DNA of 64,000 nucleotides. Source: Patescibacteria group bacterium UBA6017. Its GTDB lineage: Bacteria > Patescibacteriota > Saccharimonadia > UBA4664. Shown piece by piece: positions 3,461 through 45,084 of the stretch. The DNA lies in contig DIZX01000011.1 of the NCBI GenBank assembly GCA_002429485.1, positions 55,258 to 119,257 on the forward strand, written 5' to 3'. Within the stretch, counting starts at the first letter, position 1. Every line of letters begins with the position of its first letter. The notes under the pieces are model-generated. The model was given only the letters and a program-made list of their open reading frames with translations. It searched no databases and had not been told where the DNA came from. The position numbers were made by a program, and so were the translations under genes.

Positions 3461-3465
3461 CCCGT

Positions 3466-4638: not shown

Positions 4639-4730
4639 ATTCCCTCTGGATTTTGTGAATAATATTATATACCCACTTCCAGTATGCAATCTTCGGCTGA
4701 GAAAATCCTGAAAATTTAGCGAAAAAACGG

Positions 4731-7062: not shown

Positions 7063-7129
7063 AAACAGTTCCCGTACACCATATCTAAGGCTTGTCGCAC
7101 CCGCCTTCGGGCAGGTATACTAAATACCA

Positions 7130-7939: not shown

Positions 7940-8001
7940 AGCCCTCGCCAACGTAGCGCCCGGCTGATGTTGGATATTGCGCAAAACGCCTGACAACAAA
8001 A

Positions 8002-8036
8002 CGCTCCCACATAGCAAAGGGAGCGAGTTCGTTTTG
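8002..8036 (+). terminator. intrinsic terminator after lepB
   Basis: Stem cgctccc / gggagcg (8002-8008 with 8019-8025) and a 10-nt loop, followed by agttcgttttg. Confidence 0.45.
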
Positions 8037-8049
8037 AAAATATTCAACG

Positions 8050-8100
8050 CAGCCGAAGCTACCTAATCAGCCGAAGCTACCATATCGAAGCTACCTAAGC
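8050..8100. repeat. three tandem copies of a short motif (AGCCGAAGCTACC / CGAAGCTACCTAA)
   Basis: cagccgaagctacctaatcagccgaagctaccatatcgaagctacctaagc lies directly downstream of the parB stop. Confidence 0.4.
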
Positions 8101-8106
8101 CGGGAT

Positions 8107-9045: not shown

Positions 9046-9833
9046 TTCTTCTTCGCTCCTGCTCGTTTTTCTACTTCCTTGGCCAGCGCCTTGTAGCTGC
9101 GCGCACCCTTGCTCCATCCATCATAATGCATAATCGATTTACCAAAACTCGGTGCCTCGGCCAGCCGCACATTGCGCGGAATCACGGTCTCAAATACCTT
9201 ATCCGGGAAATGCCGCTTCACCTCTTCGTGCACCTGCATACTCAGCGTAGTGCGGCCGTTGTGCATAGTCACCAGCACCCCCATCAACCCCAGTTTCGGA
9301 TTTAAGGCTTTGCGGATTCGCTGTACCGTCTGCACCAGCTGCCCCAAGCCTTCCATAGCGTAAAATTCCGCCTGCACCGGGATAATCAGCTCGTGTGCCG
9401 CCACCAATCCATTCACCGTCAAAATCCCCAAACTGGGCGGACAATCTATCAGAACATAATCATAATCCAGATCGGCCAATGCATCGCGCAGCTTAAATTC
9501 CCGCTGCGGCACCGCCACTAGCTCCACCTCGGCCGCCGCCAACACCGCGCTCGCGGGCAGCACGTGCAAGCCGTCCACCGCCGTAGGCCTAGCCACCGCT
9601 TGCGCCGATACCCCGTCCATCAGCACGTCGTACAAATCACCCGACAACTTATCTGGCCGAATACCCAGCCCACTGGAAGTATTCCCTTGTGGGTCCAGAT
9701 CCACTATCAACACCTTCTTATTCCCCGAAGCCAGATACGCTCCGAGGTTTATGGTAGTGGTAGTCTTGCCAACTCCGCCTTTTTGGTTGGCGATTGCGAT
9801 TATTTTGGCCATTCGCGGCGCTCGCAGCCTCAC
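9042..9833 (-). CDS. parA: chromosome partitioning ATPase ParA/Soj
   Basis: Deviant Walker A motif KIIAIANQKGGVGKTTTTINLG. Confidence 0.9.
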   Translation of the reverse strand: MRLRAPRMAKIIAIANQKGGVGKTTTTINLGAYLASGNKKVLIVDLDPQGNTSSGLGIRPDKLSGDLYDVLMDGVSAQAVARPTAVDGLHVLPASAVLAAAEVELVAVPQREFKLRDALADLDYDYVLIDCPPSLGILTVNGLVAAHELIIPVQAEFYAMEGLGQLVQTVQRIRKALNPKLGLMGVLVTMHNGRTTLSMQVHEEVKRHFPDKVFETVIPRNVRLAEAPSFGKSIMHYDGWSKGARSYKALAKEVEKRAGAKKK

Positions 9834-13900: not shown

Positions 13901-16900
13901 CATTATTTGAGGAACCGATATTATTGGCCTGGAGAGCAAAAGTACCAAAGGCATTATTGTAGCTAGCAGTGGTATTGGCGGTGAGGCTATAAGCGCCAAG
14001 AGCGTTGTTGTGTTGACCAGTGGTGTTGGATGTCAGTGCAGACATACCTGTAGCCGTATTGTCGAAGCCGGTCGTGTTATTCAGCAGCGCGCCCCGGCCA
14101 ATGGCGGTGTTCTCATAGCCAGTCTGGTTAAATTGGAGTGCTCGGGATCCGAGAGCGGTATTGTAATTGCCGGTAGTGTTGGACTGCATACTGTAGCTGC
14201 CGATGGCAGTGTTCTCGAAACCAGTCGTGTTAGCCTGGAGCGTGATGTAGCCCAGGGCGGTATTGCGGTAGCCGGTGGCGTTAGCTTGCCCCGAGTTGAT
14301 GCCTATGAAGTTGTTGCTTGGGTCACTGCTAGCCCGGACTTCGATGTTAGCTACTCCACTGGCGTTCTTAACGGTCAAAGCCGAGTTGGTAATACCGGTA
14401 ATCTGTTTGATGGTGACCCCCGAAATAGTCCCCAGCCAGCTGCCCGTCGGGGTGAAGGACAGTTTGTTGGTGTTAACAGTGTTGACGACGTAGCTGTAGG
14501 TGCCATTACAGTTGTCTCCGGTGATGGCTACACCACCCAAGGTCTGGCCACCAATGGCGGCAGTAACTGATTGAGATGAGTTGCCACAGGCCGTCGGCGT
14601 ACTACTGATATTGAAGCTAACTTGGTATGTAGCCCCACTGGTGATGGCGGCCGTGGTGTTGGTGATGGTGGTTGTACCACTAGTGTGGGTAGCTTGAGTA
14701 GAGGTGGTCACATCCCACCCAGTGGTAGTTCCCCATTGGGTGGCGAAGTTGTTAACCCCCATGAGATCCGCACCTAGGGTGGCTGTGTCGGTACCGGCGC
14801 GTACGGTGAGGGTTTGGTTGGTGGTGTCGACGTTTACTACCGGAACGGCGGTGGCATTTTGAATCTGGAAGGATGTGGCGGAGTTTGAAGCTGCCTTCTG
14901 AGTATAATCACCGTTGAGCGAGATACCGGAGCCCTGAACCTTGAACAGGTTGTCAACTCCGCCGTTGCTGCTCGAGATACCAAAATAAGTGTTAGCGCTG
15001 ATGTCCAAAGTCGACATCACTACTTCGTTCACCCCCAGAGAAGTGACGTTCGTGAATGCCACGAAGGTTGGCGTAAACCACGCCTGCTCCGTAGGCTCAA
15101 TTGTGACATATGTGTTCGAGGCACCAGCACTCGTAGAAGATGCCCGAACATCAATATAAGTTAGATCAAGTACTGTATCGTGTACTACTCTCATCCGGTC
15201 ATAGTCAGAAGTACCATTCTGGTTCAACAGAGATACAGTAGCCGTCGACCCCCAGTCAGCCTGAACTAAGAAGGATCTTGAGTTTGGGGTCATCGTACCG
15301 CCAATAGTCGTCAAAGTAACCTTAGCGGCAAATCGGCCATTGTTGGTCGCTCTTGAAGCAATCCGGTACCAATTGCCGCTAGTATTAGTCTGTGCCACAA
15401 CTCCCGTACTTATCCCCTGTGTCAACAGAATGTCGCTGCTAGTCTGAGCTAGCGTACGATATTTCAGTACGCCGCTATCGTTCGTAACGAACCCGGTATA
15501 AGTAGCGTCATCGGCTGTTTGGGGTACAATCACGCTTCCCGCTACAGTATCGACCGATAAAATGGAGGTACCGGCCGCATTTTGGACCCGGAAAGCAGTG
15601 GTTGAGTCATTTCCAGTAGTAGGCTTCACAAGGGCCGTTCCGGCCACCAGCAGGTTAATGTTGCGGGTGGTACTCCAGTCATTGAGGTTATTGGTCCCGG
15701 TCACGCCAAGCCGCACAGTAGAGTCACCAGCATTTGAGTTAGACCCTAGCCCCCAGGAGTTCATGCTGTTCCATTGTCCTACAATGCTGGCGTTACCGGC
15801 GGCATTGCTACTAGCATCGTTCAGGAGTAAGTAAGCCGGTGTAGCAGTACCAGTGCTATTAATTCCAATAACTACCTTATTATTGGAAGTATCAACTGCG
15901 AGAACATTAGCAGCCGAGGCATTTTGGACTTGGAATGCGGTGACGGAATTGGTATTACTCTTAGCAATAATCGAAGCGCTGGCGCTATTGGTGCTTAAGT
16001 TTAAGTTGCCAGTCCCGGCGTTTACGTTGACGGCCGTTGCACCAGTGGTATTACCAAGAGTAATCGTGCCGACATTAGCCGTTCCGATACTTATTGCCCC
16101 GTTCGCCGTCGCGCCGGTACCGGCATCAATCACTACGTTACCGCCGGTGCGGGTACCACTCGCCCCGGTAGCGTTGCCGCCCTGTAGTGTCAATACACCA
16201 CCGACGGCAGTGGTAGTACCGCTTTCGTTACCAGCCCTAAGGGTCAGGGCTGCTCCGGTAGCTGCCGCCGAAGTATTATTCCCCGGCTGAAACACCAAGG
16301 CCGTCGGAGCCGTCCCGGCCAAGGTGGTAATGTCGGCCGTTTGGGCTCCCGCCAAGGTTAAGGCTCCCAGGTTGTCTATTTTGAACTTCGACACTCCGTT
16401 GGCCTGGAGGTCTAGGAAAGCCCCCGAGGCAAACGAGCCCGAACCGTTGGCTACGTTCACTAGCAAAGCCGTGCCGGTGTAGGCTGAGGTGGACTGGCTC
16501 ACACTCAGTAAGGTAGCGCTGGTGGCCCCGGTATTTGAGGTGGTGATGTTGCCCGCATTCTGGGTTTGCTGAATATCTACCGCCTGAGCCGCCGTGCCAC
16601 TCGTCCCCTTCACGGTCAGACCCACTACGCTGTTGACTGTCGGCGTAATGGTGTTTTGGGCAGTCGAGGTGGGGGCTTGGAGAATACACGTGATACAGGT
16701 GTTGGCCGACCCGGCGTTCACCGCGTACACTGCACTGCCTATCCGGCGCATCGGCAGCATTTCCCCGTCCGGCGTACAGCTCGAGAAGGGCGTGCAACTG
16801 GAAGTCGTGTTGGCGCCGCCCGCGATGTTCGTAGACAGCCACAGCACCGGCTGGTTGAGGTCAATCCCCACTAAAGTCGTGATTGAGCCCAAATTCACGG

Positions 16901-17279
16901 AGAAGTAACCGTTCTTCACTGTCACTCCGTTACTGGCATTATTTAACCATTCTTCAGTCCACTGCAAAGTACCAGCCGTGCTCTGACAATCTGGCAGGGT
17001 TGCACAGGCACTATCGGTGGCCACCAACCCATCACCATTCTTGTAGATCTTGAACTGCATATTGTAATTTCCATCAGCAACAACGGCCCCAGCCGCGTTC
17101 AGCAGCCGACCCTGGTAGTTCACTTTATTGTTGATGCCAGCGCTCGGGGCCACGGCCTGCGCCGGACTAGCCGGCACTATCCCACTCAAGCCAAATAGCC
17201 CGACCAGTGTCAGGAGCGGTGCTATACGTGAGATAAATGTTTGGACTCTTCGCCTGAAAATTAGGCTCGAAATGATCAC
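10935..17279 (-). CDS. giant secreted surface protein A (2114 aa) with YadA-head-like 14-residue repeats
   Basis: Signal peptide. Its N-terminal domain is shared with giant B (QGRL.NA.G..V.DGNYN.QFKIY...GTLQWTEEWL...NLGSIT). It has a long run of 14-aa N-T-A-x-G repeats (NTAIGSYSMQSNTTGNYNTALGSRAL...) and repeated NVLAVDTSNNKVVIGI-type segments. Confidence 0.75.
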   Translation of the reverse strand: MIISSLIFRRRVQTFISRIAPLLTLVGLFGLSGIVPASPAQAVAPSAGINNKVNYQGRLLNAAGAVVADGNYNMQFKIYKNGDGLVATDSACATLPDCQSTAGTLQWTEEWLNNASNGVTVKNGYFSVNLGSITTLVGIDLNQPVLWLSTNIAGGANTTSSCTPFSSCTPDGEMLPMRRIGSAVYAVNAGSANTCITCILQAPTSTAQNTITPTVNSVVGLTVKGTSGTAAQAVDIQQTQNAGNITTSNTGATSATLLSVSQSTSAYTGTALLVNVANGSGSFASGAFLDLQANGVSKFKIDNLGALTLAGAQTADITTLAGTAPTALVFQPGNNTSAAATGAALTLRAGNESGTTTAVGGVLTLQGGNATGASGTRTGGNVVIDAGTGATANGAISIGTANVGTITLGNTTGATAVNVNAGTGNLNLSTNSASASIIAKSNTNSVTAFQVQNASAANVLAVDTSNNKVVIGINSTGTATPAYLLLNDASSNAAGNASIVGQWNSMNSWGLGSNSNAGDSTVRLGVTGTNNLNDWSTTRNINLLVAGTALVKPTTGNDSTTAFRVQNAAGTSILSVDTVAGSVIVPQTADDATYTGFVTNDSGVLKYRTLAQTSSDILLTQGISTGVVAQTNTSGNWYRIASRATNNGRFAAKVTLTTIGGTMTPNSRSFLVQADWGSTATVSLLNQNGTSDYDRMRVVHDTVLDLTYIDVRASSTSAGASNTYVTIEPTEQAWFTPTFVAFTNVTSLGVNEVVMSTLDISANTYFGISSSNGGVDNLFKVQGSGISLNGDYTQKAASNSATSFQIQNATAVPVVNVDTTNQTLTVRAGTDTATLGADLMGVNNFATQWGTTTGWDVTTSTQATHTSGTTTITNTTAAITSGATYQVSFNISSTPTACGNSSQSVTAAIGGQTLGGVAITGDNCNGTYSYVVNTVNTNKLSFTPTGSWLGTISGVTIKQITGITNSALTVKNASGVANIEVRASSDPSNNFIGINSGQANATGYRNTALGYITLQANTTGFENTAIGSYSMQSNTTGNYNTALGSRALQFNQTGYENTAIGRGALLNNTTGFDNTATGMSALTSNTTGQHNNALGAYSLTANTTASYNNAFGTFALQANNIGSSNNAFGDASMILNTSGSYNTAVGDDTLRNNTSGSYNTALGRRAGFQDSGGQFATGAALQNATALGAYAQVQASNSIVLGSVDTATNVGIGTTIPLNTFSVSPLDYSTGTAYQSTTNITGVGTSWTSAMIGEQFIFATGQTATILTVPTSTTMTTATSQTVSSNPGIAYRIHRIGLQVTSAGLVGIGTSSPASLLYVTGGIPAVSAGAGTAATAALTVLGPNGGATTSTAGATAGAGSAISFTTGNGGAATGASGGETGGAAGTLLLQGGNGGAAINGTGGAGSNINLTAGNGGNGSTLGGAGGIITLAGGSVGTGGAATAGYVRVRNASNSTTAFAVQNASGANVLSVDTGGNAVHIGSSSGSTTPAFLYMDDWTTTATGNASITGQWPSNANWGIGPNSNVTDQVLRMGITSGDAVNTWGTAYNLNLVVAGTALVQPNAGLDSATAFAVKNGAGSSTALNVDTTTSNVSIGNALVVGGVSAERTFTKSFTNGVANQKFDLYFAPQFAGEIEVTLTSNYINQDAGGAVQKTFYLGLNAGGTIWHNDSRYSDASGATSANFAISDVTWDATNSRYRIQIVHRVSTGNDVFIDVKAINGYPGSITAISENMNTSAVYTTDTTSFVKPTVSYIDNVGIGVADAGTSRLNVQGGDTILGGNVQIGSATAADATQNNLQLDSSNVFADTGTCNATTNQGALYYNTNTNTPSVRVCEDGSWSDVVTTKDTGLIMFGVVPDSGTTPGDWVGVNGTLSASGPCRIYLGSVNTKIRWTGCTAYSNGRRVVVPAQAADQTVTLTAGHFTHVCLNTASTNQPQLLDGTSETNNLPTFSTTAPILCLADLKVNGSKITAIYDTRTFTTTTKELVNNITTAAALGMIAQQTATLGAVTRPALTLGLASMRGVFIVTAGGTTANTINAIIATAGPAFVKADAGSIQQNLESSATTNAGYSVTAAAIPAPANGYGSLGIALSAFSSTCTAATDDCRGSVATVLNIR
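13780..14330. repeat. roughly 42-bp periodic coding repeats (the YadA-head-like / Hep_Hag-like 14-aa repeat array) inside giant gene A
   Basis: About 13 iterations of an N-[TY]-A-[LIA]-G ... [AS]-N-T-[TS]-G unit in the translation. Coordinates are approximate. Confidence 0.5.
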
Positions 17280-17372
17280 TTCTCACATATAGCTTATGCT
17301 ACATATAATATCAAAATGAATAAGTATACACAAGCATTAACACCTGTCAAAACTTGTTATTTTGAGCTGACA

Positions 17373-18329
17373 TCACACGCCCTGGACGTTCTGCTTTCTA
17401 AGCTTGCTAATCTCCCGCCGTTCGCCGAGCCAGAAGAAAATTACCATCACCAATGCCAACAGATACAGCGGCCAAGCTGTGAGTAAAATCCCCGGCAATG
17501 CCCCCAGTCCTTCACCCTTGGTTCCCCCCGATGAATTCACCGGGCCGTTCACTACCGTAATCATTTGCAGGAAAGCTCCGTTGCCCTGCGCATCCGTGAC
17601 CCGCAAAATCACCCGATACGTCCCCGGCCGATCATACACATGCTTACTTGCCACTTGACCGTCTGCACCCTGGCTCACCAGCGTGGTATTACCGTCGCCC
17701 CAATCCCAACTCACCGCGTACGGCGGAACACCGCCCACGATCGTCGCCGAACGACCCGCCTCCTGGCCTGGATTCACCCCGAGCACAGTAGTACTGACCT
17801 CCAGAAACAACTGACGTCCAGTGGAGCCGCCGGGTAAATTCAAGCTTGGTGCGTCATAAAACACGTTGACTGCCGCCGAATCGGGCCCAAACTGCCCCAA
17901 AGCATCCGACACCTTAGCAACCAGCACATTTGAACCATCAAATAAATCAATTAGTAACGAAAATGTACCATCGGTATCGCACGGCGTCACGCCGCCAAAT
18001 ACGCCATTCTTCGTAATATTCACAAACGTATTTGCCGGACATGTCCCGGAAACGGTAATCGGAATGGTGCCCGTACGAGTGCCGGTACGCGGGCTCACAA
18101 TCACCGCCGCCGTAGTCGGTGCCGGACCCCTCACTGTCCCGCTCAATCCCACCGAACCCGACTGCGGATTCACCGCCGGAGTTGCTGCCTGAGTGGCCAG
18201 GCTCGAACCGAGCAATAAAATGCCTACCAAAATCAAGGCAAAAAACAACCCGGGATACGAGGTATGGCGATGGTGCCGTACCTTCCCGGAATGTTCATGG
18301 GGCACGAGCTGTAGTAAACCGGCTTTCAT
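17373..18329 (-). CDS. PKD-domain membrane protein with two transmembrane helices
   Basis: N-terminal and C-terminal hydrophobic helices. PKD signature WDWGDGNTT...HVYDRPGTYRVILRVTDAQGN. The tail WLGERRE is shared with the ORF at 47016..47996. Confidence 0.65.
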   Translation of the reverse strand: MKAGLLQLVPHEHSGKVRHHRHTSYPGLFFALILVGILLLGSSLATQAATPAVNPQSGSVGLSGTVRGPAPTTAAVIVSPRTGTRTGTIPITVSGTCPANTFVNITKNGVFGGVTPCDTDGTFSLLIDLFDGSNVLVAKVSDALGQFGPDSAAVNVFYDAPSLNLPGGSTGRQLFLEVSTTVLGVNPGQEAGRSATIVGGVPPYAVSWDWGDGNTTLVSQGADGQVASKHVYDRPGTYRVILRVTDAQGNGAFLQMITVVNGPVNSSGGTKGEGLGALPGILLTAWPLYLLALVMVIFFWLGERREISKLRKQNVQGV

Positions 18330-18352
18330 GCCTTTAGTTTAGCACAAACGTA

Positions 18353-19345
18353 TTACCGGTGTCGGCGAGCTTGCGCAATGATGTGATCGTTGTAGCGGCG
18401 CAAGGCCATCTTGAGTACGAAGAAGAGGACAATCAGGCCAATCAGTCCGAGCAGAATCAGCTTCCACGGAATTACCCAGAACCCGATTTTGCCCGTAAGC
18501 GTCTTGCCGCTCGAGTAGTTCAATACCAACGCCGCCGTATAGTGACCAAATAATTGCTTATTGCTCAGACTACTCTCAAACCGGCGCACACTGTCCGGTA
18601 GCACATTGCCACCCTTCTCATTCACCGCTACAGATCCAATTTTCTTACCAAACGTATCTTTAACTTCAATTGCCCCCGTCACCTTCTCGTGAACGCTACC
18701 CTCGTTGCGAACGCGCACCAGGAAGTCGACCGGGCCGTGTTCAAAAAAGCTTTGCTTACTAAACACTACTGGTGATACCTGCATACCAGAAGTAAATTCT
18801 GCCAAACTCACCTTTTCGGTGATAATACCGCTGACTTTGAGCAAGATCAACGCCCCGACACTAGCTGACAGAGCCACGCCTGCGCCCGCTAGGTTCGGAG
18901 GCACGGCCGTAAACCGCACAACCCCAAAGTGACCGCCCGGCTCTGCGTTAGCCGGCACGACGATCTTTATAGTGGTGGTCTTGAGGTCCCCAGGGGCCAA
19001 TTGTAGGTCAGGTACGGTCTGGATCCAATATTTCAATGAAAAGTGCGTTGAACCAGTTTCGTCGAGGAGTAATTTCGGTTGGCCGCTCTCGTCTGATCCG
19101 GCACCAAAATCATCCGCCTTCCCTTTGGCTATCAACTCCCCTTGAGTCACGTTGCGCACACGGATACTGGCCGTCACAGTCTGGCCTGGGTTAGCTGACA
19201 ATTCCATCACCGGCGGAGAAATCTCCAGACCCTGACCAGGCGAACCAGCATCAGCCGCATTAGCTGTAGCAGCCCCAAACAAAGGACCGGCCGCCAATAG
19301 GCAGGTCATCAATCCGAAAACAGCATTCTTGTACCACTTACTCAT
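18353..19345 (-). CDS. membrane-tethered protein with two Ig-like domains (Ig-TM1); candidate chaperone-like or DUF916-like component
   Basis: Signal peptide, about 260 aa of predicted beta-rich ectodomain, then a C-terminal transmembrane segment and basic tail (WVIPWKLILLGLIGLIVLFFVLKMALRRYNDH...). The motif GGHFGVVRFTAVPP followed by the alternating-hydrophobic VALSASVGALILLKV recalls the F1/G1 region of PapD-type chaperones. The architecture also matches WxL-locus DUF916/DUF3324 proteins. Confidence 0.6.
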   Translation of the reverse strand: MSKWYKNAVFGLMTCLLAAGPLFGAATANAADAGSPGQGLEISPPVMELSANPGQTVTASIRVRNVTQGELIAKGKADDFGAGSDESGQPKLLLDETGSTHFSLKYWIQTVPDLQLAPGDLKTTTIKIVVPANAEPGGHFGVVRFTAVPPNLAGAGVALSASVGALILLKVSGIITEKVSLAEFTSGMQVSPVVFSKQSFFEHGPVDFLVRVRNEGSVHEKVTGAIEVKDTFGKKIGSVAVNEKGGNVLPDSVRRFESSLSNKQLFGHYTAALVLNYSSGKTLTGKIGFWVIPWKLILLGLIGLIVLFFVLKMALRRYNDHIIAQARRHR

Positions 19346-19384
19346 TGCAATTAGTGTATAGCATAAGTTTAATAATACGAAAAG

Positions 19385-20416
19385 TTAGAAGCTTGCTGTA
19401 CAGATATAAGTCATCGTCGAAGTATAAACGCCTGCCGCTTGCGCGCCGCCGATATTCACGATGTAGCTCGATGTAAAAGTATTCGCATTTGTCGGTAAGC
19501 CAGCCTGAGCCACACTATCGCCGCTGCCAAAACGATACGAATTCGCCGTACCATATGTCCCGCTGAACGTTCCACTCCCAACACCTGTCGGGTCGGCCCC
19601 CACCGCCGGAGATGCATTAGAACGTAAGTTTAATCCAAACTGACTCGTACCTATCGCGCTGACCGTTTGCGCAGCTAAAGCCGGTATTGTATTCACCCCA
19701 GACGCCAAAGTGCTGCCGTTTATCGTCACCGTATAGCCGTTCGCGGCATTAGTCTGAGCCTGCATAACGCTCGTGCCGCTTCTCGTCAGTACCGGCGAGA
19801 AATCTCCAAAATCAATAGTATTGCCAGCTACCGTAGTACAATCAGGACCGATTGAGGTTCCAACGCAGAATACTAATATCTCAGGGGTCACCCCGGTAAG
19901 CTGTACTGGCTGCGCCGTACTCATAGCTACCGTTCCGGTATCCGTCACACCCGTCGCTCCATCACCGCCCGTGTAAGTCGAGATGCGCACGAAGTATGAA
20001 GTATTTGTCGCTGATGGATTCGTAATCGTGCCTAACGTATAGCTCAGCGCTGTCCCAGAGTTTAGATTAACTGCACCTCGCGTAATGTACGGTGCCCCAT
20101 TAGCCCCATTCACTATCGCGAATCCCACTGCTCCGCTTTGAGCCGTAAGTGTGGCACTCGTCGTTACTACACCGGCCGGCATCGCGCAGACGCCCGTAGG
20201 CGCCGAACATAACTCAAATTTAATCGAGCCGATATTGGCAGTCGTAGCAGTGGTCGCATTCACGGTATAGTTAGTTGTCGCGCCCTGAGCGCTCGAACCC
20301 ACCTGCACATTGCGCGGGGAGAGCCCGGCAGCTGATGTACTCAAAGGGGCTAATATCAGCGCCAGGACGGCTATCCGCCGTAGGCTGTGCGAGGAAGTTT
20401 GGATTAAATGCTTCAT
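19385..20416 (-). CDS. secreted tandem-domain SCPU/Csu-pilin-like protein (P1)
   Basis: Signal peptide. Two modules, each with a Cys pair (IKFELCSAPTGVCAMP; LVFCVGTSIGPDCTTVAGNTIDFGDFSPV) and a terminal strand motif (YFVRISTY; AQAAGVYTSTMTYICTASF). These resemble the CsuA/B features TGCTVGG..NKFGTLNFG and AQGDYKDTLLVTVNF. Confidence 0.6.
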   Translation of the reverse strand: MKHLIQTSSHSLRRIAVLALILAPLSTSAAGLSPRNVQVGSSAQGATTNYTVNATTATTANIGSIKFELCSAPTGVCAMPAGVVTTSATLTAQSGAVGFAIVNGANGAPYITRGAVNLNSGTALSYTLGTITNPSATNTSYFVRISTYTGGDGATGVTDTGTVAMSTAQPVQLTGVTPEILVFCVGTSIGPDCTTVAGNTIDFGDFSPVLTRSGTSVMQAQTNAANGYTVTINGSTLASGVNTIPALAAQTVSAIGTSQFGLNLRSNASPAVGADPTGVGSGTFSGTYGTANSYRFGSGDSVAQAGLPTNANTFTSSYIVNIGGAQAAGVYTSTMTYICTASF

Positions 20417-20443
20417 GCTATGTTTGTTTCCGTTATGCTTGTT

Positions 20444-21532
20444 TTAGAATGTCGCGGTACAGATATAAGTTAATGTTGCCGTATACACCCCTGCGGCCTG
20501 ATCGCCGCCAACGTTTACAATGTAGGAATTTGTGAATAAGTTAGTATTCGTGACCCCGCTCACGCTCGCCACTGTATCCCCCGTAAAGTGTCTAAAGGCA
20601 TTAGCCGTATTGTAACCACCCACACCGACAGAAGTTCCGGGGCCCGATACATTGTTACCGACAGTTGGCGTGGCATTAGACTTCACGTTCGTCCCGAACT
20701 GGCTGGTTCCGGTAGTTGAAGTACAGCTCGGCGAACAGCCAGCCGAATTCAAAGACTGCGTCCCCATAGCCGTAATTGTATTCGCCCCACTCGATAGGGT
20801 TGTACCCGTGAGTGTAATCGCATATCCAAAGCCAGCATTCGTACTAGCACTCATCAGACTAGTCCCGGTATTGGTCGCGACCGGGGAAAACACCCCAAGA
20901 GATACTGCTGATCCAGTCATATTACTGCAATCCGTCCCGCTAGTACCCACACAAAAGACTAAACTCTCTGGCATTGTACCGCTCACTACGATCTGGTTTG
21001 CCGTCGACACAGCAACTGAACCAAAATCCACCTCAACTGTCCCTGATGAATCCGAATAAGTAGTGATACGCCCATAGAACTGCTTATTCGAGGCTGACGG
21101 ATTATGCACGTTCTGGAGCGTTAATGTCACCGTGGTACTAGTGTTTATGTTTTGGGGTGTGCCATTAGTTATCCTGAATGCATTAGTGGTTGGCGCTGGC
21201 GGTGTGCCGGTGCCGGCGGTAAAACCAGATATACCGCTCTGGGCAGAAATAGTAGCAGTATTTGAAGTAAAGCTGACTCCATTGGAATCGCCCGAGTTAA
21301 CGCAACCTATCGCTTCAAGCGGTGAGTCACACATCTCGAACTTAATTGCGCCTATATTCCCCGTCGTGCCGGGCTTAAAGCCAAACGAGTACGTTGTCAC
21401 TGCGCCCGCAGCTGAGCTACCGAGAGTAAGTACCCGGCTCGTTGGCGTCACAGCCTGAGCGGAAAAAGGTGAAGCCAAAGCAAGCAATAGTGCTATCGAA
21501 CTCGTCCGAGCCAGGAGCGTTTTAATTTTCAT
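20444..21532 (-). CDS. secreted tandem-domain SCPU/Csu-pilin-like protein (P2)
   Basis: Paralog of P1. KFEMCDSPLEAIGC and LVFCVGTSGTDCSNMTGSAVSLGVFSPV; the C-terminus is DQAAGVYTATLTYICTATF. Confidence 0.6.
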   Translation of the reverse strand: MKIKTLLARTSSIALLLALASPFSAQAVTPTSRVLTLGSSAAGAVTTYSFGFKPGTTGNIGAIKFEMCDSPLEAIGCVNSGDSNGVSFTSNTATISAQSGISGFTAGTGTPPAPTTNAFRITNGTPQNINTSTTVTLTLQNVHNPSASNKQFYGRITTYSDSSGTVEVDFGSVAVSTANQIVVSGTMPESLVFCVGTSGTDCSNMTGSAVSLGVFSPVATNTGTSLMSASTNAGFGYAITLTGTTLSSGANTITAMGTQSLNSAGCSPSCTSTTGTSQFGTNVKSNATPTVGNNVSGPGTSVGVGGYNTANAFRHFTGDTVASVSGVTNTNLFTNSYIVNVGGDQAAGVYTATLTYICTATF

Positions 21533-21608
21533 TTCTATTTGTACCCATATTCATAATGCTTATGTAAACATTACTACTCCGTGATCGATTGAGTCAAGGA
21601 CAGTTGAG

Positions 21609-22595
21609 CTAGCGAGCCCGAGACTTCGCAATAATGTATCGGTTGTATCTACGGACACCCAGAGTAACAAGGTACACCGTAACGATTATGCCAACCAAGA
21701 CAAGTAACAATAATTTCCATGGTATTACCCAGAACTCGATTGTGTTATCCACAATCTTGCCCGTGGCATAACTCAAAGCCAGGTGAGCCGAATATCTCCC
21801 AAACAACTGCTTCTGATTGAGCGTTTGCGTGAATCTGCGGATACTATCCGGCAAGACGCTCCCTCCTTGCTCGTCGACCTTAACGGTCGCAACTTTGTGC
21901 CCCATCCAGTCCGTAACATCGATGCTCCCACCTGGACGCTCGTGAACGCTCCCCTCGTTCTTCAGCCGGACCAAAAAGCCAACAGGTCCATATTCGAAAA
22001 ACGATCCTGTTACATCTTTTTTGGTTTTAGTATTCGTTTGATACGCGCTGAACTCAGCCAAGCTCATTTTATCGGTAATGGCCCCCGACACCTTCAGTAA
22101 TATCAATGACCCCACACTGGCCGAAAGCGCAACACCTGTACCGTCAACACCAGGCGCAACTCCAGTGAATCGAACAACCCCGAAATGACCACCGGGCTCA
22201 GCATTTTTAGGTATGGTGATGGTGACAGTCGTCGTCTTCAACTCTCTCGGAGCCAACTTCAGATCAGGAACCCCCGAAATCCAGTATTTCAACGAATACC
22301 GTGTTGCTCCGGTTTCATCGAGCAATATATGGGGGGCACCGTCTTCGCTGGTTCCCGCTCCAAAATCATCCGCCTTGCCCTTAGTTATCAGCGTGGCCGC
22401 AGTAACATTTCTAACCCGGATATTCGCAGTAATTGTCTGCCCGGGATCTGCGCTAAGCTCTATCACCGGCGGAGATATCTCGAGCCCCTGGCCGCCGGTA
22501 GCTTGAGCGTTTACGGGCAATGCTACTGCCAAAGGCGATAGACATAATGCAGCTCCCAGGACAAAAGCGCTCCAACCCAGTAATCTTTTATTCAT
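21609..22595 (-). CDS. membrane-tethered protein with two Ig-like domains (Ig-TM2), paralog of 18353..19345
   Basis: Signal peptide (start MNKRLLGW at 22595). Conserved GGHFGVVRFTGVAP...VALSASVGSLILLKVSG and a C-terminal transmembrane segment with basic tail. Confidence 0.6.
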   Translation of the reverse strand: MNKRLLGWSAFVLGAALCLSPLAVALPVNAQATGGQGLEISPPVIELSADPGQTITANIRVRNVTAATLITKGKADDFGAGTSEDGAPHILLDETGATRYSLKYWISGVPDLKLAPRELKTTTVTITIPKNAEPGGHFGVVRFTGVAPGVDGTGVALSASVGSLILLKVSGAITDKMSLAEFSAYQTNTKTKKDVTGSFFEYGPVGFLVRLKNEGSVHERPGGSIDVTDWMGHKVATVKVDEQGGSVLPDSIRRFTQTLNQKQLFGRYSAHLALSYATGKIVDNTIEFWVIPWKLLLLVLVGIIVTVYLVTLGVRRYNRYIIAKSRAR

Positions 22596-22793
22596 GCAAA
22601 TACCGTACAGCATAAGCCAGATCAATACAACCAAGCCCAAGCGTCTTTCTTCAAGTTAAATACCAATCCACGATTCCGGCGCAAATGTATATCTGCATCA
22701 CAATGTAGCGCCAGCTATCGTAGTTCCGTGTATGTTTGCATGCGTACGCCACAACGTAGGGCTTATCCATTGTTGGCCTTCAGTTAGAGATAA

Positions 22794-22824
22794 GCAAAAT
22801 AGCTCCTCGCCAGGAAGCTATTTG
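22794..22824 (-). terminator. possible attenuator or terminator hairpin between P3 and Ig-TM2
   Basis: Inverted repeat aaatagct(N11)agctattt, about 60 nt downstream of the P3 stop on the transcribed strand. Confidence 0.3.
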
Positions 22825-22884
22825 CCCAAACTCATGACTGCCGAACTGTATCTACCTAGTCCTCAGTTCCTAGTGATAAGTTGC

Positions 22885-24057
22885 CTAAAAGTTGCCTGTG
22901 CAGATAAATGTCTGCGTCGCAGTGTAGGCACCAGCCTTCGTAGTAGCAAGCACGTTGGCTACGTACGCCATCGTGTAGAGCGTGTCCGCGGTTGGCTGTG
23001 TTGCAGAAGCAATCTTCACTCCCCCTGCGGTACTGTAAGAGAACGTGTTGGCCGTAGCGTAGGTACCAAAGGCCGTGCCGGATGCGCTACCGGTTGCACC
23101 CACACCTACTGCAGGCGTCGTGTTGGTCATCAGGTTGAAGCCGAACTGCTCGGCCGTGGCACTGTTGTTCACCGCACCACCCACCGGGAAAGCCGTAATT
23201 GTATCAGCCGTTGTATCCGTAAATGATGAGCCGTTATAGGTAATATTATAACCGTTCAGACCATTTGTCGCCGCGGTCATCTTTGCGATACCGGTCGAAG
23301 CTGCACCATTGGCCATCGGGTTTGGTGACAGCGTCACTGTTGAACCGGTAAAGGTTCCACAAGTCTCGGGTGTACCCGAAGTTGCACCGGAAGTCCCGAC
23401 ACAGAAGACGAGGTTTTCTTGAACGTTCGCGGTTACCGATATCTGCTGAGTTGTGGCCATGGCGATACCACCGAAGTCACGCACGGTCGTAGGAGCTACA
23501 CCCGTACCTTCGTTGTAGGTCGTAATCTTCATGTAATATTGAACATTAGTCGTCGTCGGATTTTTGGCCGCGTTGATCGTACAAGTCCAAGTATTGCCCG
23601 CCGTTGCGGACGCAGATGTGCGAGTCATATACAGAGTATTTGCGGTCGAAGCTTGACCACTCACACCCAAGACAAAGCTTGCTGCGTTCGTACCAGTACA
23701 ACCGGTGGTGGTTGCTGGGCCCGATGTGAAGCTTTCACCAGTGGAGTTACCGGAGTTTACGCAAGACACTGCCGCAAGCGGAGAATCACAGATTTCAAAT
23801 TTAATCGTACCAACGTTCGCCGTCTGGCCAATATTGAATACTGAAGTTAACGTTACGCCCGTTGCCGCCGGCAGCGAGCTGCTCGGAGTTACACTACGAG
23901 TATCAAGCACACCGGCGGTAGAAGCCAACGCCGGGATCGGAGCCAGGCTCACGAGAATAAGCGAGACCGCACCGATCCAAGAAGCAGCTCGCTCGAGGAA
24001 ACTCAGCCTTGTCTTCGCATTTGAAGTTAATTTCATTATTTTTTTAGCACCTTTCAT
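22885..24057 (-). CDS. secreted tandem-domain SCPU/Csu-pilin-like protein (P3)
   Basis: IKFEICDSPLAAVSC, QYYMKITTYNEG, LVFCVGTSGATSGTPETC; the C-terminus is KAGAYTATQTFICTGNF. Confidence 0.55.
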   Translation of the reverse strand: MKGAKKIMKLTSNAKTRLSFLERAASWIGAVSLILVSLAPIPALASTAGVLDTRSVTPSSSLPAATGVTLTSVFNIGQTANVGTIKFEICDSPLAAVSCVNSGNSTGESFTSGPATTTGCTGTNAASFVLGVSGQASTANTLYMTRTSASATAGNTWTCTINAAKNPTTTNVQYYMKITTYNEGTGVAPTTVRDFGGIAMATTQQISVTANVQENLVFCVGTSGATSGTPETCGTFTGSTVTLSPNPMANGAASTGIAKMTAATNGLNGYNITYNGSSFTDTTADTITAFPVGGAVNNSATAEQFGFNLMTNTTPAVGVGATGSASGTAFGTYATANTFSYSTAGGVKIASATQPTADTLYTMAYVANVLATTKAGAYTATQTFICTGNF

Positions 24058-24118
24058 GGCAACATAATATTGTCAGAATCGTAGCATAAGCTTTATTTTG
24101 ATGTCAACACCCTCTAAT

Positions 24119-24928
24119 CTAGTATGTCCCCGTAGCCACCAGCGTCATACCGCCCCCGTAAGTGCCTCCGGGCGAGACACTACTCATATTTGCCATAAAA
24201 CTAATCGTGTAGTCTGTTTCCCCGGAACTACTAGGAGCTGAGGCAATAGTATCCCCCGAAAAATACCGGTACGCATCAGCCGTTCGATAAGGCAAAGGAA
24301 TAACCACTGAAGGGTTAGATAAGCTAAAGGCTGAACTGGGAATAGGCACAGGGTCGGCTCCAACCGCAGCCGGAGAAGCATTCAATCTTAGGTTGATCCC
24401 AAATTGTTCCACTCCGTTGTTCGATGCGCAGGTCGGCGAGCAGCCGGTACTGTTCGCACTTTGTGAACCCATCCCTGCTAAAGCATGCCCGCCGTTACTT
24501 GGCGGAGAGCCAACTATTTGCACCACATAACCAAAAGAAGTGTAATCCTTAACACTGAAGGTTGCCGTAGCTGTCTTGGCTGTCACTAATGAGAGTGCGC
24601 CAAACGCTACTAATGACGTATTCACTATCATCGTCAGGCTCGGTTGTGCCGTGGTATCGAACCCGGATTTAGTCTGGAAGCTTGTCGACGCGCCATTCCC
24701 CACCGCGTTCTCGCCGAGACTCGATCCCCCGTCGTCAGCACTTGGATTGAAAGTAAAGTTGCCTCCGGTGGAGGTTGAATTGAACTGCCCGTTGCCGCCC
24801 ACTTCTCCCTCGACTATTCGATAGCTCGTCGAAGTCGACGACGGATCTCCGATCGCGCCACTAGCCGTGCCGGAGATACCCAGTACCAGGGCCATCGAAA
24901 TTACAAGCTGTCTGTTCCACCTTCTCAT
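24119..24928 (-). CDS. secreted single-domain SCPU/Csu-pilin-like protein (P4)
   Basis: Signal peptide. STGCSPTCASNNGVEQFGINLRLNASPAAVGADP parallels P1 and P2. The C-terminus GGMTLVATGTY ends in an aromatic residue. Confidence 0.5.
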   Translation of the reverse strand: MRRWNRQLVISMALVLGISGTASGAIGDPSSTSTSYRIVEGEVGGNGQFNSTSTGGNFTFNPSADDGGSSLGENAVGNGASTSFQTKSGFDTTAQPSLTMIVNTSLVAFGALSLVTAKTATATFSVKDYTSFGYVVQIVGSPPSNGGHALAGMGSQSANSTGCSPTCASNNGVEQFGINLRLNASPAAVGADPVPIPSSAFSLSNPSVVIPLPYRTADAYRYFSGDTIASAPSSSGETDYTISFMANMSSVSPGGTYGGGMTLVATGTY

Positions 24929-24992
24929 TACTGTTTATCTTGCCGTATTTTGACAAAAATCGCAATCCGCTTGCGCTAGGATGGAATATATG

Positions 24993-25010
24993 TAGCACAA
25001 GCGTTATAAT
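24993..25010 (+). promoter_or_regulatory. island motif TAGCACAAGCG abutting a consensus -10 TATAAT
   Basis: tagcacaagcgTTATAAT with the -10 at 25005-25010. It lies upstream of the gene at 25040, in the region that diverges from P4. Confidence 0.4.
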
Positions 25011-25039
25011 GAGTGGGACTAATTAACAGTGAGCTAGCC

Positions 25040-25963
25040 ATGCCTCCGGGCACTCCCCCGCCAATTCTTCAACTCAATAAACCCAAGCCCAACCTCGGTG
25101 GGAGCTGGAAGCGCCTCAACGGCCGGGCCAGCCTGGTTGCCAGTATCACTTCCCTCTTTGTATTTTTGATGGTCGTCGGCGGCGTGGGCGGCTACTACTT
25201 TGCCCAAAGCCGCAAACCTGCGCCTACTGCCACCAAAACCACCATTTCGACCCTAACCCCCGAAGAACTCGCTAAACTCACCGAGGTCGGCTCCAATCTC
25301 GGTAACTCCGGCCAAACGCTAAATATCGGCGCTAACGCCTTATTCCGAGGCACCGCCAACGTCACCGGTGATCTCACGATCGGCGGCAAGCTCAACGCCA
25401 ACGGCCCTGTGACCCTCAGCCAGCTCAACATCACCGGCACCACCGCCGCCACCGGCCTCAACGTGGGCTCCAACCTCAACGTCACCGGCAACACCACTCT
25501 GCAGCAATCATTGAGCGTGGGCGGGCTCACCACACTGGGCGGCGGGCTCAACGTCGGCGGCGCGGCCAGCTTCAATTCGATCAACGCCACTACCTTGTCG
25601 GTCAGCAACATCAATATCTCCGGCCCCCTGCGCATCAGTCACCTCTCCACCCAAGGGCCCACGCCCACTTTCGTCACCAGCACCAACCTTGGCGGCGGCG
25701 GCACGGGCAGCATTAGCGGCAATGACACCGCCGGCACCGTCAACTTCAATACCGGAGGTGGCACGGCCGCGGGCGTGCTTGGCACCATCACGTTCCGGGC
25801 TGGCTACTCCGGTACCCCGCATGTATTGCTCTCGCCCATCTCCGGTGCCGCCGCCAGCACCCCCGTGTACGTCACCCGCACCACTGGCGGCTTCCAGGTG
25901 CGCACCGACTCCGCTCCCCCCGCCGGCGCCATCCTAAGCTTCGACTACTTCGTCACTCAGTAG
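25040..25963 (+). CDS. type-II membrane protein with beta-helical repeats and a conserved C-terminal domain
   Basis: Start taken at ATG 25040 (the ORF track uses GTG 25013). N-terminal transmembrane segment LVASITSLFVFLMVVGGVGGYYF. Repeats LNVTGNTTLQ / LNVGGAASF. The C-terminus ...FDYFVTQ is paralogous to the ORF at 48655..49779 (...FTYWVVQ). Confidence 0.55.
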   Translation: MPPGTPPPILQLNKPKPNLGGSWKRLNGRASLVASITSLFVFLMVVGGVGGYYFAQSRKPAPTATKTTISTLTPEELAKLTEVGSNLGNSGQTLNIGANALFRGTANVTGDLTIGGKLNANGPVTLSQLNITGTTAATGLNVGSNLNVTGNTTLQQSLSVGGLTTLGGGLNVGGAASFNSINATTLSVSNINISGPLRISHLSTQGPTPTFVTSTNLGGGGTGSISGNDTAGTVNFNTGGGTAAGVLGTITFRAGYSGTPHVLLSPISGAAASTPVYVTRTTGGFQVRTDSAPPAGAILSFDYFVTQ

Positions 25964-26510
25964 CCTGGCCTCCTGGCAACTCCGAGTTCTTGCGAGAATT
26001 GCAAAATATGGCGTAGTTATGTGGCCCGATATCAGTCAAGCGCATTACTGCGGACGGATCACAAAAACGATTCGGCTCGCCTAGATACGCCCGATAACTC
26101 GACCATTCATATTCATCGATCCCCCGAATCCCAACGGGATTCAAATGAATGTACCGGCTTAAGTTCATCAAATCAGCATTGTCACGCACATACCTATCTC
26201 TATATCTGCCCTGAAATATATGGCCGACCTGGCCATAATGCTTGTTGTAATACTTCACATATCCGAGCGCCAGCGACGTCATACATTTCTGTATCGATCC
26301 CCTGCCATCCTGTCTCAGCAGTAAATGGAAATGATTCGGCATCAGGCAGTATGCCGCCACAGTCACCGAATGCTCAGCAGCCGCATCCCGCAACATCCAC
26401 AGAAACTTCTCATAATCCCGTGCATCATGATAAACCGCTTCCCTATGGTTCCCACGATTATATATATGATAAAAATGAAAATCTTCGAAATTTCGGCGTG
26501 GCGTAGGCAT
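25953..26510 (-). mobile_element. IS200/IS605-like Y1 (HUH) transposase, or REP-associated tyrosine transposase-like gene
   Basis: HUH motif (YCLMPNHFHLLL) and Tyr motif (GHIFQGRYRDRYV...YIHLNPV). Start at M17, ATG 26510. The 3' end overlaps the 25040..25963 gene by 11 nt. Confidence 0.6.
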
Positions 26511-26599
26511 ACTCGTATCTCCAGCGCCTACAATACCGAACAAATACCATAAATACAACTTCTGTCAAAAACTCTGAGTTGCAGGGCGGCAGCTACCCC

Positions 26600-29500
26600 C
26601 TACTGCGCCGTATCCAGCAAACAGCCGTCCGTTACCACGCGGTTACAGCCCGTATTCGTAAACGACGCCCCGTGCCGCAACCGCCGCGTCGGGTTCGGAT
26701 GGTAGTAAATGTCGACGTCTTGAGCCACACTGACCGTATCCGGGAAGCCTCCGGTATTCGAATCGTCAATGATCAAGAAGAGATAGTAGTTGAACGCAAT
26801 ACCCACGTCCGTACCCGTGCCATCCAGTGCCTTCAAGAAGTAAAACTTGGTCGCGTAGGCCGGGCTAATGAATTGCGGCACACCCCAGGTAGTGGTTCCC
26901 ACAGCGGCCGTTCGCATGGTAATAACGTACTGACCGCTGCCATTCACCTGCACCAGCGACGGCGCAGTGTTGACCTCAGTGTTAAACATCTTGGAGTAGT
27001 GCCCGATGCGTGCTTGAGCCTTCTGCCCGGCATACTCCGCCCCATTGTTTGCTGTCGTACAAGCCGAACCGCTTAGCGTACAGCCTCCAACCTCATAAAA
27101 GAACCCGTCCGAGAAGACACCCCCGCCATGAGCGTGGTTTGAACCCGCAATCATGCCCGAGTTCGACGCCCGGTAGAGATTTCCAATCGTGCCGTTAGAA
27201 TTGATCGCGGCATAAAATACATCCAATCCCGAGCTCTCCGAACCAAAGAAGTACATGTACCCATTGGCCGCTGCGGCCTGCCTGAACCTCCCTTTCTGAT
27301 CTTGCTCATTGGTATATTTCCACGTACCGAGCGACCCATCGGTATTGATAGGCGCAAATTGCACATCACTCAAATTATTCGTGCCATCATACCCGCCTAT
27401 CACGTACAACTTTGAATTGTAGGCCAACACGCTCTGATCTTGCCTAGCGGTGGAAAAAGTACTGCCATCCGTAGTCCAACTCAGCAGCAATCCGTTTTCA
27501 CCAATCTCACTAAACATCACACTATTCTTCAGAGTCGCGCCGTTGATCCCCCCTGCCGCATATACCCGCCCGTTCATCAATGTCGCACCAAACCCATGTC
27601 GAGCCTCGGGCATCGACGTTTCGGTGCGCCAGGTACCGACATCGCCGGTAGCGCTCAGTGGCGCGGAAATGACGTCCGCGGTATCAGCAGCGGTAGACGA
27701 CGAACCCCCAATAAGGAATATCCTGCCTACGTAGGTTATCGCCGCCCCGGATATGCGCGCCTGACCCGACGACAACTGAGTGTCGCTACCGCTCGAAAAT
27801 GAACCAAGCGACCCGCTCGCGCTAATTGCCGCGTGCTCAACCTTCGTCGACCAGACCGTGCAAACGCCGGCGCTATAGGTAGTGCAGCCACCAACCACAT
27901 ACAGATTTCCGTTATATGCCACCGTCTGTGCATCGGCCCGGGCCGTTAGGGTACACGCGCCCGTACACCCTGAGGTGCTGGTCCAGGGGTTCGTATTGGC
28001 AGCCGTGGTTCCAAACAATCCGCTTCCGCCGTTCCGGACCACGAAGTACTCCGATGTCGCCAGGTAGCTACCCGTAGCACACGGCGGCACGCCGGTTCCG
28101 CTACACCCTCCGACCGTATATAGCCGGCCGTCATATGCAGCTACACCTGCTCCCCACCGCGCCGCGCTCAAGGTTTTTGAGCAAGTCGTCCAAACCCCCA
28201 CCGCTCCCGTCGATCCATCCAAAGCCGCACATGAAATCACGTTCGAAGGCGCATTGCCGGCGTTGTCCGTCATACCCCCGATGGAATAAATGACGTTGTT
28301 ATGAATCACTACCCCAATGAAAGTATGCGGCCCCGACGGCAAAGTGTTCGTCTCTGTCGTAACGCTCCCGACCGCTCCAGTCGTGCTGGTTAGCGGCGCG
28401 CGGTAGACATCAGTATAAGAGGTTGTCCCATTTCTTCCGCCAGCAATATACAGATATCCCGCATATGCCGCCGCTCCCAACCCCCGCTTGCCGGTGCTGC
28501 CAAAACTGTAAGTTCCACTGCCGCACCACAGCGTACTGCTAACGCCACAACTATTTGGATCAGCCAAACTTCCTCCCGAGATCTTGGTATACTGCACGTC
28601 GTTGTAATAGTTGGTGCCGTCATAGCCGCCCATCAGATAGATATAATTGCCCCACACGGCGCTAGCCAGATACGCCCGGCCGCTGATGAAGGCATGCGAG
28701 GCCGTATTGTCAGCCGACCAGCTCAGGTTACCATTGCTGGCCGTTTGGGTCGCCACCAACAAGGTATTGGCATAATTGTCCGCCGGGGCAGTCGTCTTCT
28801 GCAGCCCGCCAATGTAGTAAAGTTTGCCTCCATAACCCACCATCGTTCCGAATGTCCGCCCGGCGTTCATTCCCGTAGATGCCGGTAAAGTCCCCATGCC
28901 GGTAGTGGTCCAAGCACCCAGAGACCCGTCATCATTTATTTTGGCAGCGTCCACCGTAGCCACGTAGGTCCCACAGTTGGTACCATTGCAACCTCCGGCG
29001 GCGTATAGGTAACCGTTGTAGGCGGTGGTTGCAACTCCGGCCCTGGCCGCTGTCACGCTGCCGCCGTTGTTGGCCGTGGGGCTGGTAGTGTCGCCGGGAG
29101 TGGTATTGATAATTGCGTACTGCGAATCCCCGAGGGCAGTCGTACAGTTGTTGGCGTTGGTCGGCTCTGCGGTACACCCGGCTATCGAATATATAACACC
29201 GTTATATGACGCCACACCATTGAATAATCGCGCTGTCGTGAAGCTCGTCGACGTATCCCATGCACCAATCGTCCCATCGGCATTAATGACCGCGTAGTAG
29301 GTGCTGTTTAGTAAGCCCGAACAGGCAGGCGCCGTGGTACACCCACCCACGATATAGAGGTGGCCCTGTTCGGCTACTACTCCCCCATTGCGCCATCCGG
29401 CAGCCAACACCGCCGTAATAGCCGTTGTAGTGCCCCAAGTACCTAGCGTGTAATCCGGCGCGATAGACACATACTGCACATCGGTCAGCGCGCTCGTGCC

Positions 29501-42698: not shown

Positions 42699-42707
42699 TG
42701 AATTTGC

Positions 42708-45077: not shown

Positions 45078-45084
45078 TTGGTTT

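Follow-up and report, generated by a model that had tools for sequence, protein, structure and literature searches.

The 64,000-nucleotide (nt) stretch of contig DIZX01000011.1 analyzed here (hereafter the window), from Patescibacteria group bacterium UBA6017, carries on its minus strand a gene module that is very probably the core of a Saccharimonadia Pam pilus operon, in which each gene can be assigned a role and pilins would be joined by donor-strand exchange in trans. The module encodes members of the Pam family, its shaft pilins have a two-domain anatomy with a chaperone-usher-like fold in the C-terminal domain (C-domain) and no internal duplication, and its gene order is conserved. The finding is real, but the locus adds a member to a pilus family, Pam, that had been described before: a 2026 preprint reports cryo-electron microscopy (cryo-EM) structures of Pam homologs (Troman et al., bioRxiv 10.64898/2026.03.03.709456). 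Pam pili appear to be host-contact fibers of parasitic bacteria of the candidate phyla radiation (CPR) and a newly recognized case of usher-less donor-strand assembly. To these, the window adds an uncharacterized variant of the operon, in which three mid-size pilins are combined with a duplicated chaperone and accompanied by a second, divergent module; such variation shows how the Pam system diversifies. Recognizing the genes matters for annotation because their public label is still "hypothetical protein."

An earlier note on this DNA had singled out four paralogous proteins, P1 to P4, encoded within positions 19385-24928. The four open reading frames (ORFs), their lengths and coordinates, the motifs quoted from them, and an intergenic hairpin all exist as described, and the proteins are secreted and belong to the chaperone/donor-strand class of pilus subunits, with two domains in P1-P3 and one in P4. 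The ORF list shows, however, that the interval holds five minus-strand ORFs, not four. All four proteins match the NCBIfam hidden Markov model (HMM) NF058581 (CPR_Pam_pilin_C, "Pam pilus system pilin subunit"), with scores of 165.7 (P1), 133.1 (P2), 84.7 (P3), and 130.4 bits (P4), all above the curated cutoff of 55 bits. The match is confined to the C-terminal ∼150 residues, which in P3 are residues 248-390. At E ≤ 1e-5, we found 1110 homologs of P2 and 900 of P1, unannotated and about 340-390 amino acids (aa) long; for P4, 480 homologs were found. A Pfam scan of P1-P4 and of 42 members of their family matched no Pfam entry. PDB sequence searches with P1, P3, a pilin profile, and a chaperone profile, in a PDB version without the Pam entries 25PZ and 25QA, returned no Pam, Csu, or PapD entry; the matches that they did return, spurious repeat matches ("Pizza" proteins) and KacA only, were rejected.

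Paralogy of the four proteins is confirmed by BLASTP. P1 shares 46% identity with P2 (E 6e-83) and 34% with P3 (E 8e-43), and P3 is a full-length paralog of both P1 and P2 (34-38% identity). P4 aligns with the C-terminal ∼165 residues of P1-P3 only, at 32-34% identity (E 1e-17 to 6e-25 against P1 and P2, 6e-8 against P3). The module proteins are identical to hypothetical proteins of the Saccharimonadia metagenome-assembled genome (MAG) GCA_002413465.1. P2 and P1 share a reading frame (19388-21532, minus strand), with a gap of only a stop codon and 8 codons (a 27-nt spacer), which is a sign of tandem gene duplication.

Gene order in the module, all on the minus strand, is PamT, P3, Chap2, P2, P1, Chap1, and PamR. 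P4, the PamT-like protein (24119-24928, 269 aa), has a Pam C-terminal domain preceded by a signal peptide and an N-terminal region rich in Gly, Ser, and Asn; its best match, over its full length, is NCBIfam NF058579 (PamT). P3 (22885-24057, 390 aa) is the first pilin after it, and P2 (20444-21532, 362 aa) and P1 (19385-20416, 343 aa) are the other two-domain Pam shaft pilins. Chap2 (21609-22640, a 343-aa ORF that is 334 aa in the public gene call) and Chap1 (18353-19345, 330 aa) are PamC/PamD-like membrane-anchored chaperones, 61-63% identical by BLASTP. A 318-aa ORF (17373-18329) with immunoglobulin (Ig)/PKD domains (Pfam PKD_4, E 3e-9) and a C-terminal transmembrane (TM) helix is the PamR-like anchor/terminator, and its best match is NF058578 (PamR), again over the full length. 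As assessed by hydropathy analysis, every module product has a signal-like N terminus, and Chap1, Chap2, and the PamR-like ORF have a C-terminal TM helix, which in Chap2 is followed by a basic tail. The module thus combines the features of Pam operons, i.e. a single-domain PamT, TM-anchored two-Ig chaperones, a TM-anchored PamR, and Sec export, and it comes from within the CPR/Patescibacteria host range of Pam (Saccharimonadia, Microgenomatia).

This layout is conserved. An order of PamT, two to four two-domain pilins, one chaperone, and PamR is kept across 79 GTDB species loci, labeled Saccharimonadia, Saccharibacteria, or Patescibacteria, or from unclassified MAGs. PamT is the first module gene in almost all of the loci covering that part of the operon, and the position of the chaperone directly after the last pilin is conserved in related loci, usually with a spacer of 0-6 nt. 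The extra chaperone between P3 and P2 occurs in this organism only among the 79 loci.

The domain anatomy of the shaft pilins was defined on P1 using AlphaFold2 (AF2) models. The N-terminal domain (N-domain; residues 32-168, 19913-20323, minus strand) is a complete nine-strand β-sandwich with a C70-C77 pair, modeled without any donor strand at a predicted local distance difference test (pLDDT) score of 90-98. Its strands are residues 35-39, 47-55, 60-70, 89-94, 100-102, 110-118, 123-132, 140-148, and 157-166. It is followed by a linker (residues 169-180, QPVQLTGVTPEI; 19877-19912, minus strand), which is most likely the donated strand, and by the C-domain (residues 181-343, 19388-19876, minus strand), a chaperone-usher-pilin-like Ig fold whose first strand is LVFCVG (residues 181-186). 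When linker and C-domain (169-343) were modeled alone, using a 142-sequence alignment, pLDDT was 95.7 and the predicted template modeling score (pTM) was 0.87. A Foldseek search with the C-domain model was led by FimA and PapA, with chaperone-usher pilins as neighbors and a similarity of fold to CsuA/B or CupE pilin. Foldseek neighbors of the full-length P1 model, where confidence is confined to the N-domain, were Ig-like folds of a generic kind, among them BslA, CLIPPER, and YcnI. P2 and P3 align with P1 over their full length, so the Pam domain plan seen in the P1 models extends to them. The motifs that had been quoted are all present in P1, namely IKFELC..GVC (C70/C77), YFVRISTY (141-148), and LVFCVGTS..DC (C184/C193), followed by DFGDFSPV and then the C-terminal GVYTSTMTYICTASF. 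A two-domain form, which had been thought rare, is found in at least ∼1100 homologs and in every shaft pilin of the 79 species loci; two-domain pilins are the norm in the Pam family, not a rarity.

The closest described system is that of Candidatus Mycosynbacter amalyticus, two filaments of which were solved by cryo-EM (Troman et al., 25PZ/25QA). In these filaments, the linker of each subunit is inserted in the C-domain of the adjacent subunit, and the N-terminal domain of PamA and PamB has nine strands (Troman et al.). In the same report, PamC and PamD are chaperones that resemble PapD and carry a TM helix at the C terminus, PamT is a single-domain tip subunit without linker, and PamR is a membrane-anchored terminator (Troman et al.). 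The C-domain of the M. amalyticus proteins (the Pam set being PamA, PamB, PamE, PamT, PamC/D, and PamR) is in the same HMM family as P1-P4, and the two systems share a nine-strand N-domain, a linker, and a truncated Ig C-domain in the pilins, next to a tip protein of one domain, chaperones anchored by a TM helix, and a TM-anchored PamR of the PKD/FnIII type. Each depends on Sec, does without an usher, and comes from Saccharimonadia.

By analogy with M. amalyticus, whose homologs provide through cryo-EM the trans strand exchange, the subunit order, and the anchoring assumed here, P4 would be the single-domain, PamT-like tip subunit and P3, P2, and P1 two-domain shaft pilins in the size class of PamB/PamE. 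Chap2 and Chap1 would act as membrane-anchored PapD-like chaperones, and the 318-aa ORF as a membrane-anchored, PamR-like terminator/anchor. All products would be exported by Sec, and the chaperones would hold the incomplete Ig-like C-domain of each pilin at the membrane. The linker of one pilin (∼167-180 in P1) would fill the groove in the C-domain of its neighbor by donor-strand exchange in trans, and the complete N-terminal sandwich would make lateral contacts and keep the fiber extended. Assembly would proceed without an usher; no usher family was found among the operon or flanking ORFs scanned.

Several points weigh against this assignment. The match of P4 to PamT (213 bits, cutoff 240) and that of the 318-aa ORF to PamR (298.8 bits, cutoff 300) both lie slightly under the NCBIfam equivalog cutoff. 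Unlike M. amalyticus, this module encodes three pilins of intermediate size (343-390 aa) and lacks a 55-kDa PamA-type subunit. The two systems were compared through HMMs and the published description. When P1 was modeled at full length, AF2 predicted the C-domain poorly (pLDDT 33-64), and it is from the homolog that docking of the linker in trans rather than in cis would follow. A terminator scan did not call the hairpin after P3 that is described below. Finally, both the filament and its expression are predicted for this organism from the genes. Two further differences from M. amalyticus are that the second chaperone here is a recent duplicate (61-63% identity), located after the first pilin, and that the window contains a second, highly divergent module.

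The chaperones invite comparison with a Gram-positive surface-protein system. As assessed with Pfam, Chap2 (E 0.005) and Chap1 both have a sub-threshold match to WxLIP_PGBD (DUF916, PF06030). This family is matched by the N-domain of 44 of 63 Pam-type chaperones (from loci L004-L067, alignment A3). The best E is 6e-6, and the register never changes, residues ∼46-148 aligning with profile positions 20-120/121. None of these matches reaches the gathering score (27.3 bits); the chaperones have the TM helix, but no DUF3324 was found in them. WxLIP proteins consist of DUF916, DUF3324, and a TM helix and are predicted to insert a strand into their WxL partner, and in WxL clusters one WxLIP accompanies two WxL proteins, a small one and a large one (Hassan et al. 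2023, PMC10599100). The likeness to Pam chaperones extends to size, signal peptide, and two-Ig, TM-helix architecture, and the clusters are alike in having one protein of this kind, a small single-domain partner, and larger partners with an N-terminal domain. The differences are that the matches of Pam chaperones are sub-threshold and that Pam partners have no WxL-domain match, that WxL proteins are thought to be bound to peptidoglycan and not polymerized, and that WxL clusters have no equivalent of PamR. The Pam preprint (10.64898/2026.03.03.709456) makes no mention of WxL.

On the strength of the in-register, sub-threshold WxLIP_PGBD matches and of the parallel cluster logic, the Pam machinery and Firmicutes WxL clusters might be homologous forms of one usher-less, membrane-anchored chaperone/donor-strand system of monoderms, a proposal that is tentative and, in our view, rather unlikely. 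If true, WxL proteins would be handled, or even polymerized, by strand complementation from WxLIP, and Pam chaperones would share that ancestor; if confirmed, this kinship would tie a CPR pilus to a widespread Gram-positive surface-protein system. A rival reading, which we consider very improbable, is that the system is a WxL-like cluster and not a pilus, in which a membrane-anchored two-Ig protein, instead of serving as a transient chaperone, permanently holds monomeric adhesins, one small and several large, on the cell surface by a strand inserted in their C-domain. It would account for the WxLIP_PGBD matches, the shared size, architecture, and predicted insertion of a strand into the partner, and the presence of a single WxLIP beside a small and a large partner. 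It conflicts, however, with the fact that PamA/PamB filaments were isolated and solved from M. amalyticus, where these are the 2nd and 9th most abundant proteins. In addition, the pilins here pass the Pam pilin HMM, none of 142 pilin and PamT sequences matches the WxL domain model at E ≤ 10, and the WxLIP matches are below the gathering score.

Chap1 was also compared with plasmids by tblastn, which retrieved only weak matches to two-Ig hypothetical proteins in Deinococcus (E 1e-4, 25% identity, 75% query coverage). One such match is on plasmid NZ_CP140100.1 of Deinococcus sp. AB2017081 (positions 7899-8717); no recognizable pilins or pilus context were found in the neighborhood of this gene. 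A very weak match to a DUF916 protein of Rossellomorea was also obtained.

The least credible alternative to a Pam pilus assembled in trans concerns the pilins themselves: P1-P3 would be tandem SCPU/Csu fusions that arose by internal duplication, with YFVRISTY complementing domain 2 in cis and thereby changing or abolishing polymerization. This is extremely improbable, because there is no self-similarity, YFVRISTY lies inside a complete domain, the cysteine-bearing strands occupy different places in the two domains, and cryo-EM of the homolog shows the linker in the adjacent subunit. Specifically, no intra-protein BLASTP match was found at E ≤ 10, and hhalign of the N-domain against the C-domain profile (42 sequences) gave a probability of 0.2%, which does not support the view of the earlier note that each protein contains two copies of one unit. 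The two motif pairs are probably topologically non-equivalent, to judge from the strand order in the models, because the IKFELC strand is the third of nine in the N-domain and LVFCVG is the first in the C-domain. YFVRISTY had been taken as the terminal strand of domain 1 that might be donated to domain 2 of the same protein. It is in fact strand 8 of the nine in a confidently predicted, complete N-domain, and strand 9 (157-166) comes after it, so it is internal and neither terminal nor donatable. In chaperone-usher pilins, a donor segment just before strand A prevents self-complementation, and the candidate donor segment here directly precedes strand A.

The resemblance to SCPU/Csu pilins that had been proposed holds for the C-domain fold and fails as family membership. 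The isolated C-domain of P1 matches Pfam SCPU (PF05229) with an E of 0.025 and 15.4 bits over profile positions 5-136 of 138, which is below the gathering score of 22.4 bits. No SCPU match was found at E ≤ 10 in 42 full-length family members, and none in the C-domains of P2, P3, P4, or the second module. Like CsuA/B of Acinetobacter baumannii, CupE of Pseudomonas aeruginosa, and the SCPU family, the Pam C-domain has a Cys-bearing first strand and an FG motif, a C-terminal G-x-Y-T-x-T-x-T strand ending in F, and a donor strand immediately N-terminal to the domain. Csu and CupE pilins are single-domain subunits (about 150-180 aa for the Csu type) whose assembly depends on an outer-membrane usher and a soluble periplasmic chaperone. 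P1-P3, by contrast, score below the Pfam threshold and carry one more complete domain N-terminal to the donor strand, their chaperones are anchored in the membrane, the system has no outer-membrane usher, and the host is a monoderm CPR bacterium. Pap and Fim pili similarly share with Pam a truncated Ig pilin fold filled by a strand of the neighbor, a two-Ig chaperone, and tip and terminator subunits, but they have single-domain pilins, coiled rods, a required usher, and soluble periplasmic chaperones, and no sequence similarity to Pam pilins is detectable. Other systems for comparison are TasA fibers and the environmental fibrils TLP-1a/b (PDB 9IKJ/9IKK; CryoSeek, PMC11494351). TLP-1b, a donor-strand-exchange fibril, belongs to the Foldseek context of the C-domain. 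TLP-1 differs in having a single-domain protomer that receives its strand from protomer n+4 and an 8-nm tubule, and sequence identity is 15%.

The donated strand is most likely about residues 167-180 in P1, as the comparison with PamT suggests. PamT homologs keep a P-x-L-T-hydrophobic strand that aligns with PE-x-LVFCVG of the pilins. They are without the preceding pilin segment A-Q-Q-I-T-V-S-G-T (QPVQLTGV in P1), and PamT is said to lack the linker. The linker has alternating hydrophobic residues, and its G175 is at least 90% conserved. If the linker is the donor, LVFCVG would be the first strand of the C-domain itself, which is the arrangement that we take Csu pilins to have from the CsuA/B sequence. 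A PamT with the LVFCVG-equivalent strand and without linker is consistent with a tip subunit able to receive a strand and unable to donate one.

The cysteines of the shaft pilins follow a conserved pattern. C70, C77, C184, C193, and C339 are invariant in a 42-member alignment (A1). In a larger alignment (A2), cysteines at 184, 193, and 339 are present in 77 of 78 two-domain pilins, the exception having a Ser at 339; two sequences have C184 and C193 without C339, and about 19 of 62 PamT homologs have C339 alone. Cysteine counts in two-domain pilins are mostly odd (5 or 7). This pattern of co-occurrence, together with the odd counts, suggests a C184-C193 pair and a conserved, unpaired thiol on the C-terminal strand of the shaft pilins, where C339 is the lone conserved Cys on the last strand of the C-domain (these C-domain positions lie at about 19400-19867 in the window). 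P4 lacks both the LVFC..DC pair and the C-terminal Cys and has only C163/C167. The near-invariant, apparently unpaired Cys could form an inter-subunit or other covalent link; the Pam preprint describes intramolecular Cys pairs only (10.64898/2026.03.03.709456).

Two elements flanking P3 bear on its expression. The 61-nt spacer between P4 and P3 contains a σ70-like promoter consensus (24078-24107, minus strand) consisting of TTGACA, 18 nt, TG, and TACGAT, with 10 of 12 consensus matches plus the extended TG and located ∼21 nt upstream of the ATG of P3; a promoter function is suggested by this match. An RNA hairpin (22787-22833, main stem 22791-22828, minus strand) lies ∼52 nt after the P3 stop codon and is followed by UUAUCUCU. 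Its folding free energy is -20.5 kcal/mol (z -3.2), a value that 2 of 200 shuffled sequences equaled, whereas the whole 244-nt spacer after P3 is not significant (z -1.6); a search of 17000-25500 with Rfam gave no match. A strong hairpin (-15 kcal/mol or below) after the first shaft pilin is found in about 16 of about 70 related loci, which makes it recurrent but not universal. We regard it as a candidate attenuator, terminator, or mRNA-stabilizing element. P3 may be transcribed from its own promoter and limited by the downstream hairpin, in which case it would be the most abundant subunit.

The earlier note had linked the hairpin to high expression of both P4 and P3. This is plausible for P3. 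It does not extend to P4, from which P3 is separated by the promoter-like site and whose counterpart PamT is of low abundance in M. amalyticus, in whose proteome PamA ranks 2nd, PamB 9th, and PamT 768th (10.64898/2026.03.03.709456). P3, and not P4, is likely to be the highly expressed unit.

A second, highly divergent Pam-like module is present in the window (40674-47996, minus strand), with a giant ORF downstream (31837-39726). It starts with a PamR paralog (47016-47996, 289 bits against NF058578), followed by a 243-aa ORF. Next come a 355-aa protein with a PamT-like N terminus (E 4e-7) and two proteins resembling pilins (386 and 366 aa), both of which end in TDYTDSITVVGAGNF. Two TM-anchored chaperones are last; one of them, of 355 aa, shares 29% identity with Chap1 (E 3e-23). 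The pilin-like proteins of this module do not match the Pam pilin HMM, and hhalign of one of them against the profile of the first module gave a probability of 0.7%, which is not significant.

Each module is followed by a giant secreted protein rich in Thr, Ser, Gly, and Asn (2114 and 2629 aa, both on the minus strand), and these have similar N termini (NYQGRLLNAAG... and NFQGKLANANG...). The 2114-aa protein (10935-17279), encoded directly downstream of the PamR-like ORF, matches no Pfam family; a promoter-like site precedes its gene (17323-17350, 11 of 12 positions matching). A tail-fiber-like neighbor is conserved beside pam operons (10.64898/2026.03.03.709456), and the giant proteins may correspond to these "tail fibre-like" neighbors, although it is uncertain whether the 2114-aa protein belongs to the system. 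Upstream of each module is a divergently oriented, plus-strand ORF (25013-25963, 316 aa, and 48496-49779, 427 aa), with an N-terminal TM segment, "GxLxVxG" β-helix-like repeats, and similar C-terminal ends. These similar upstream ORFs suggest that the two modules may be part of a larger duplicated block.

Between the modules, the minus strand encodes an IS200/Y1-transposase-like protein (25953-26558, Pfam Y1_Tnp, E 9e-12) and a 1533-aa Kelch/β-propeller-like protein (26600-31201). ATP synthase genes have been reported near pam operons (10.64898/2026.03.03.709456), and none was found among the ORFs scanned in the flank at 1030-9833. This flank is ordinary chromosome, with genes for RF-1, PrmC, an HtrA-like protease, an LCP-family enzyme, signal peptidase I, ParB, and ParA.

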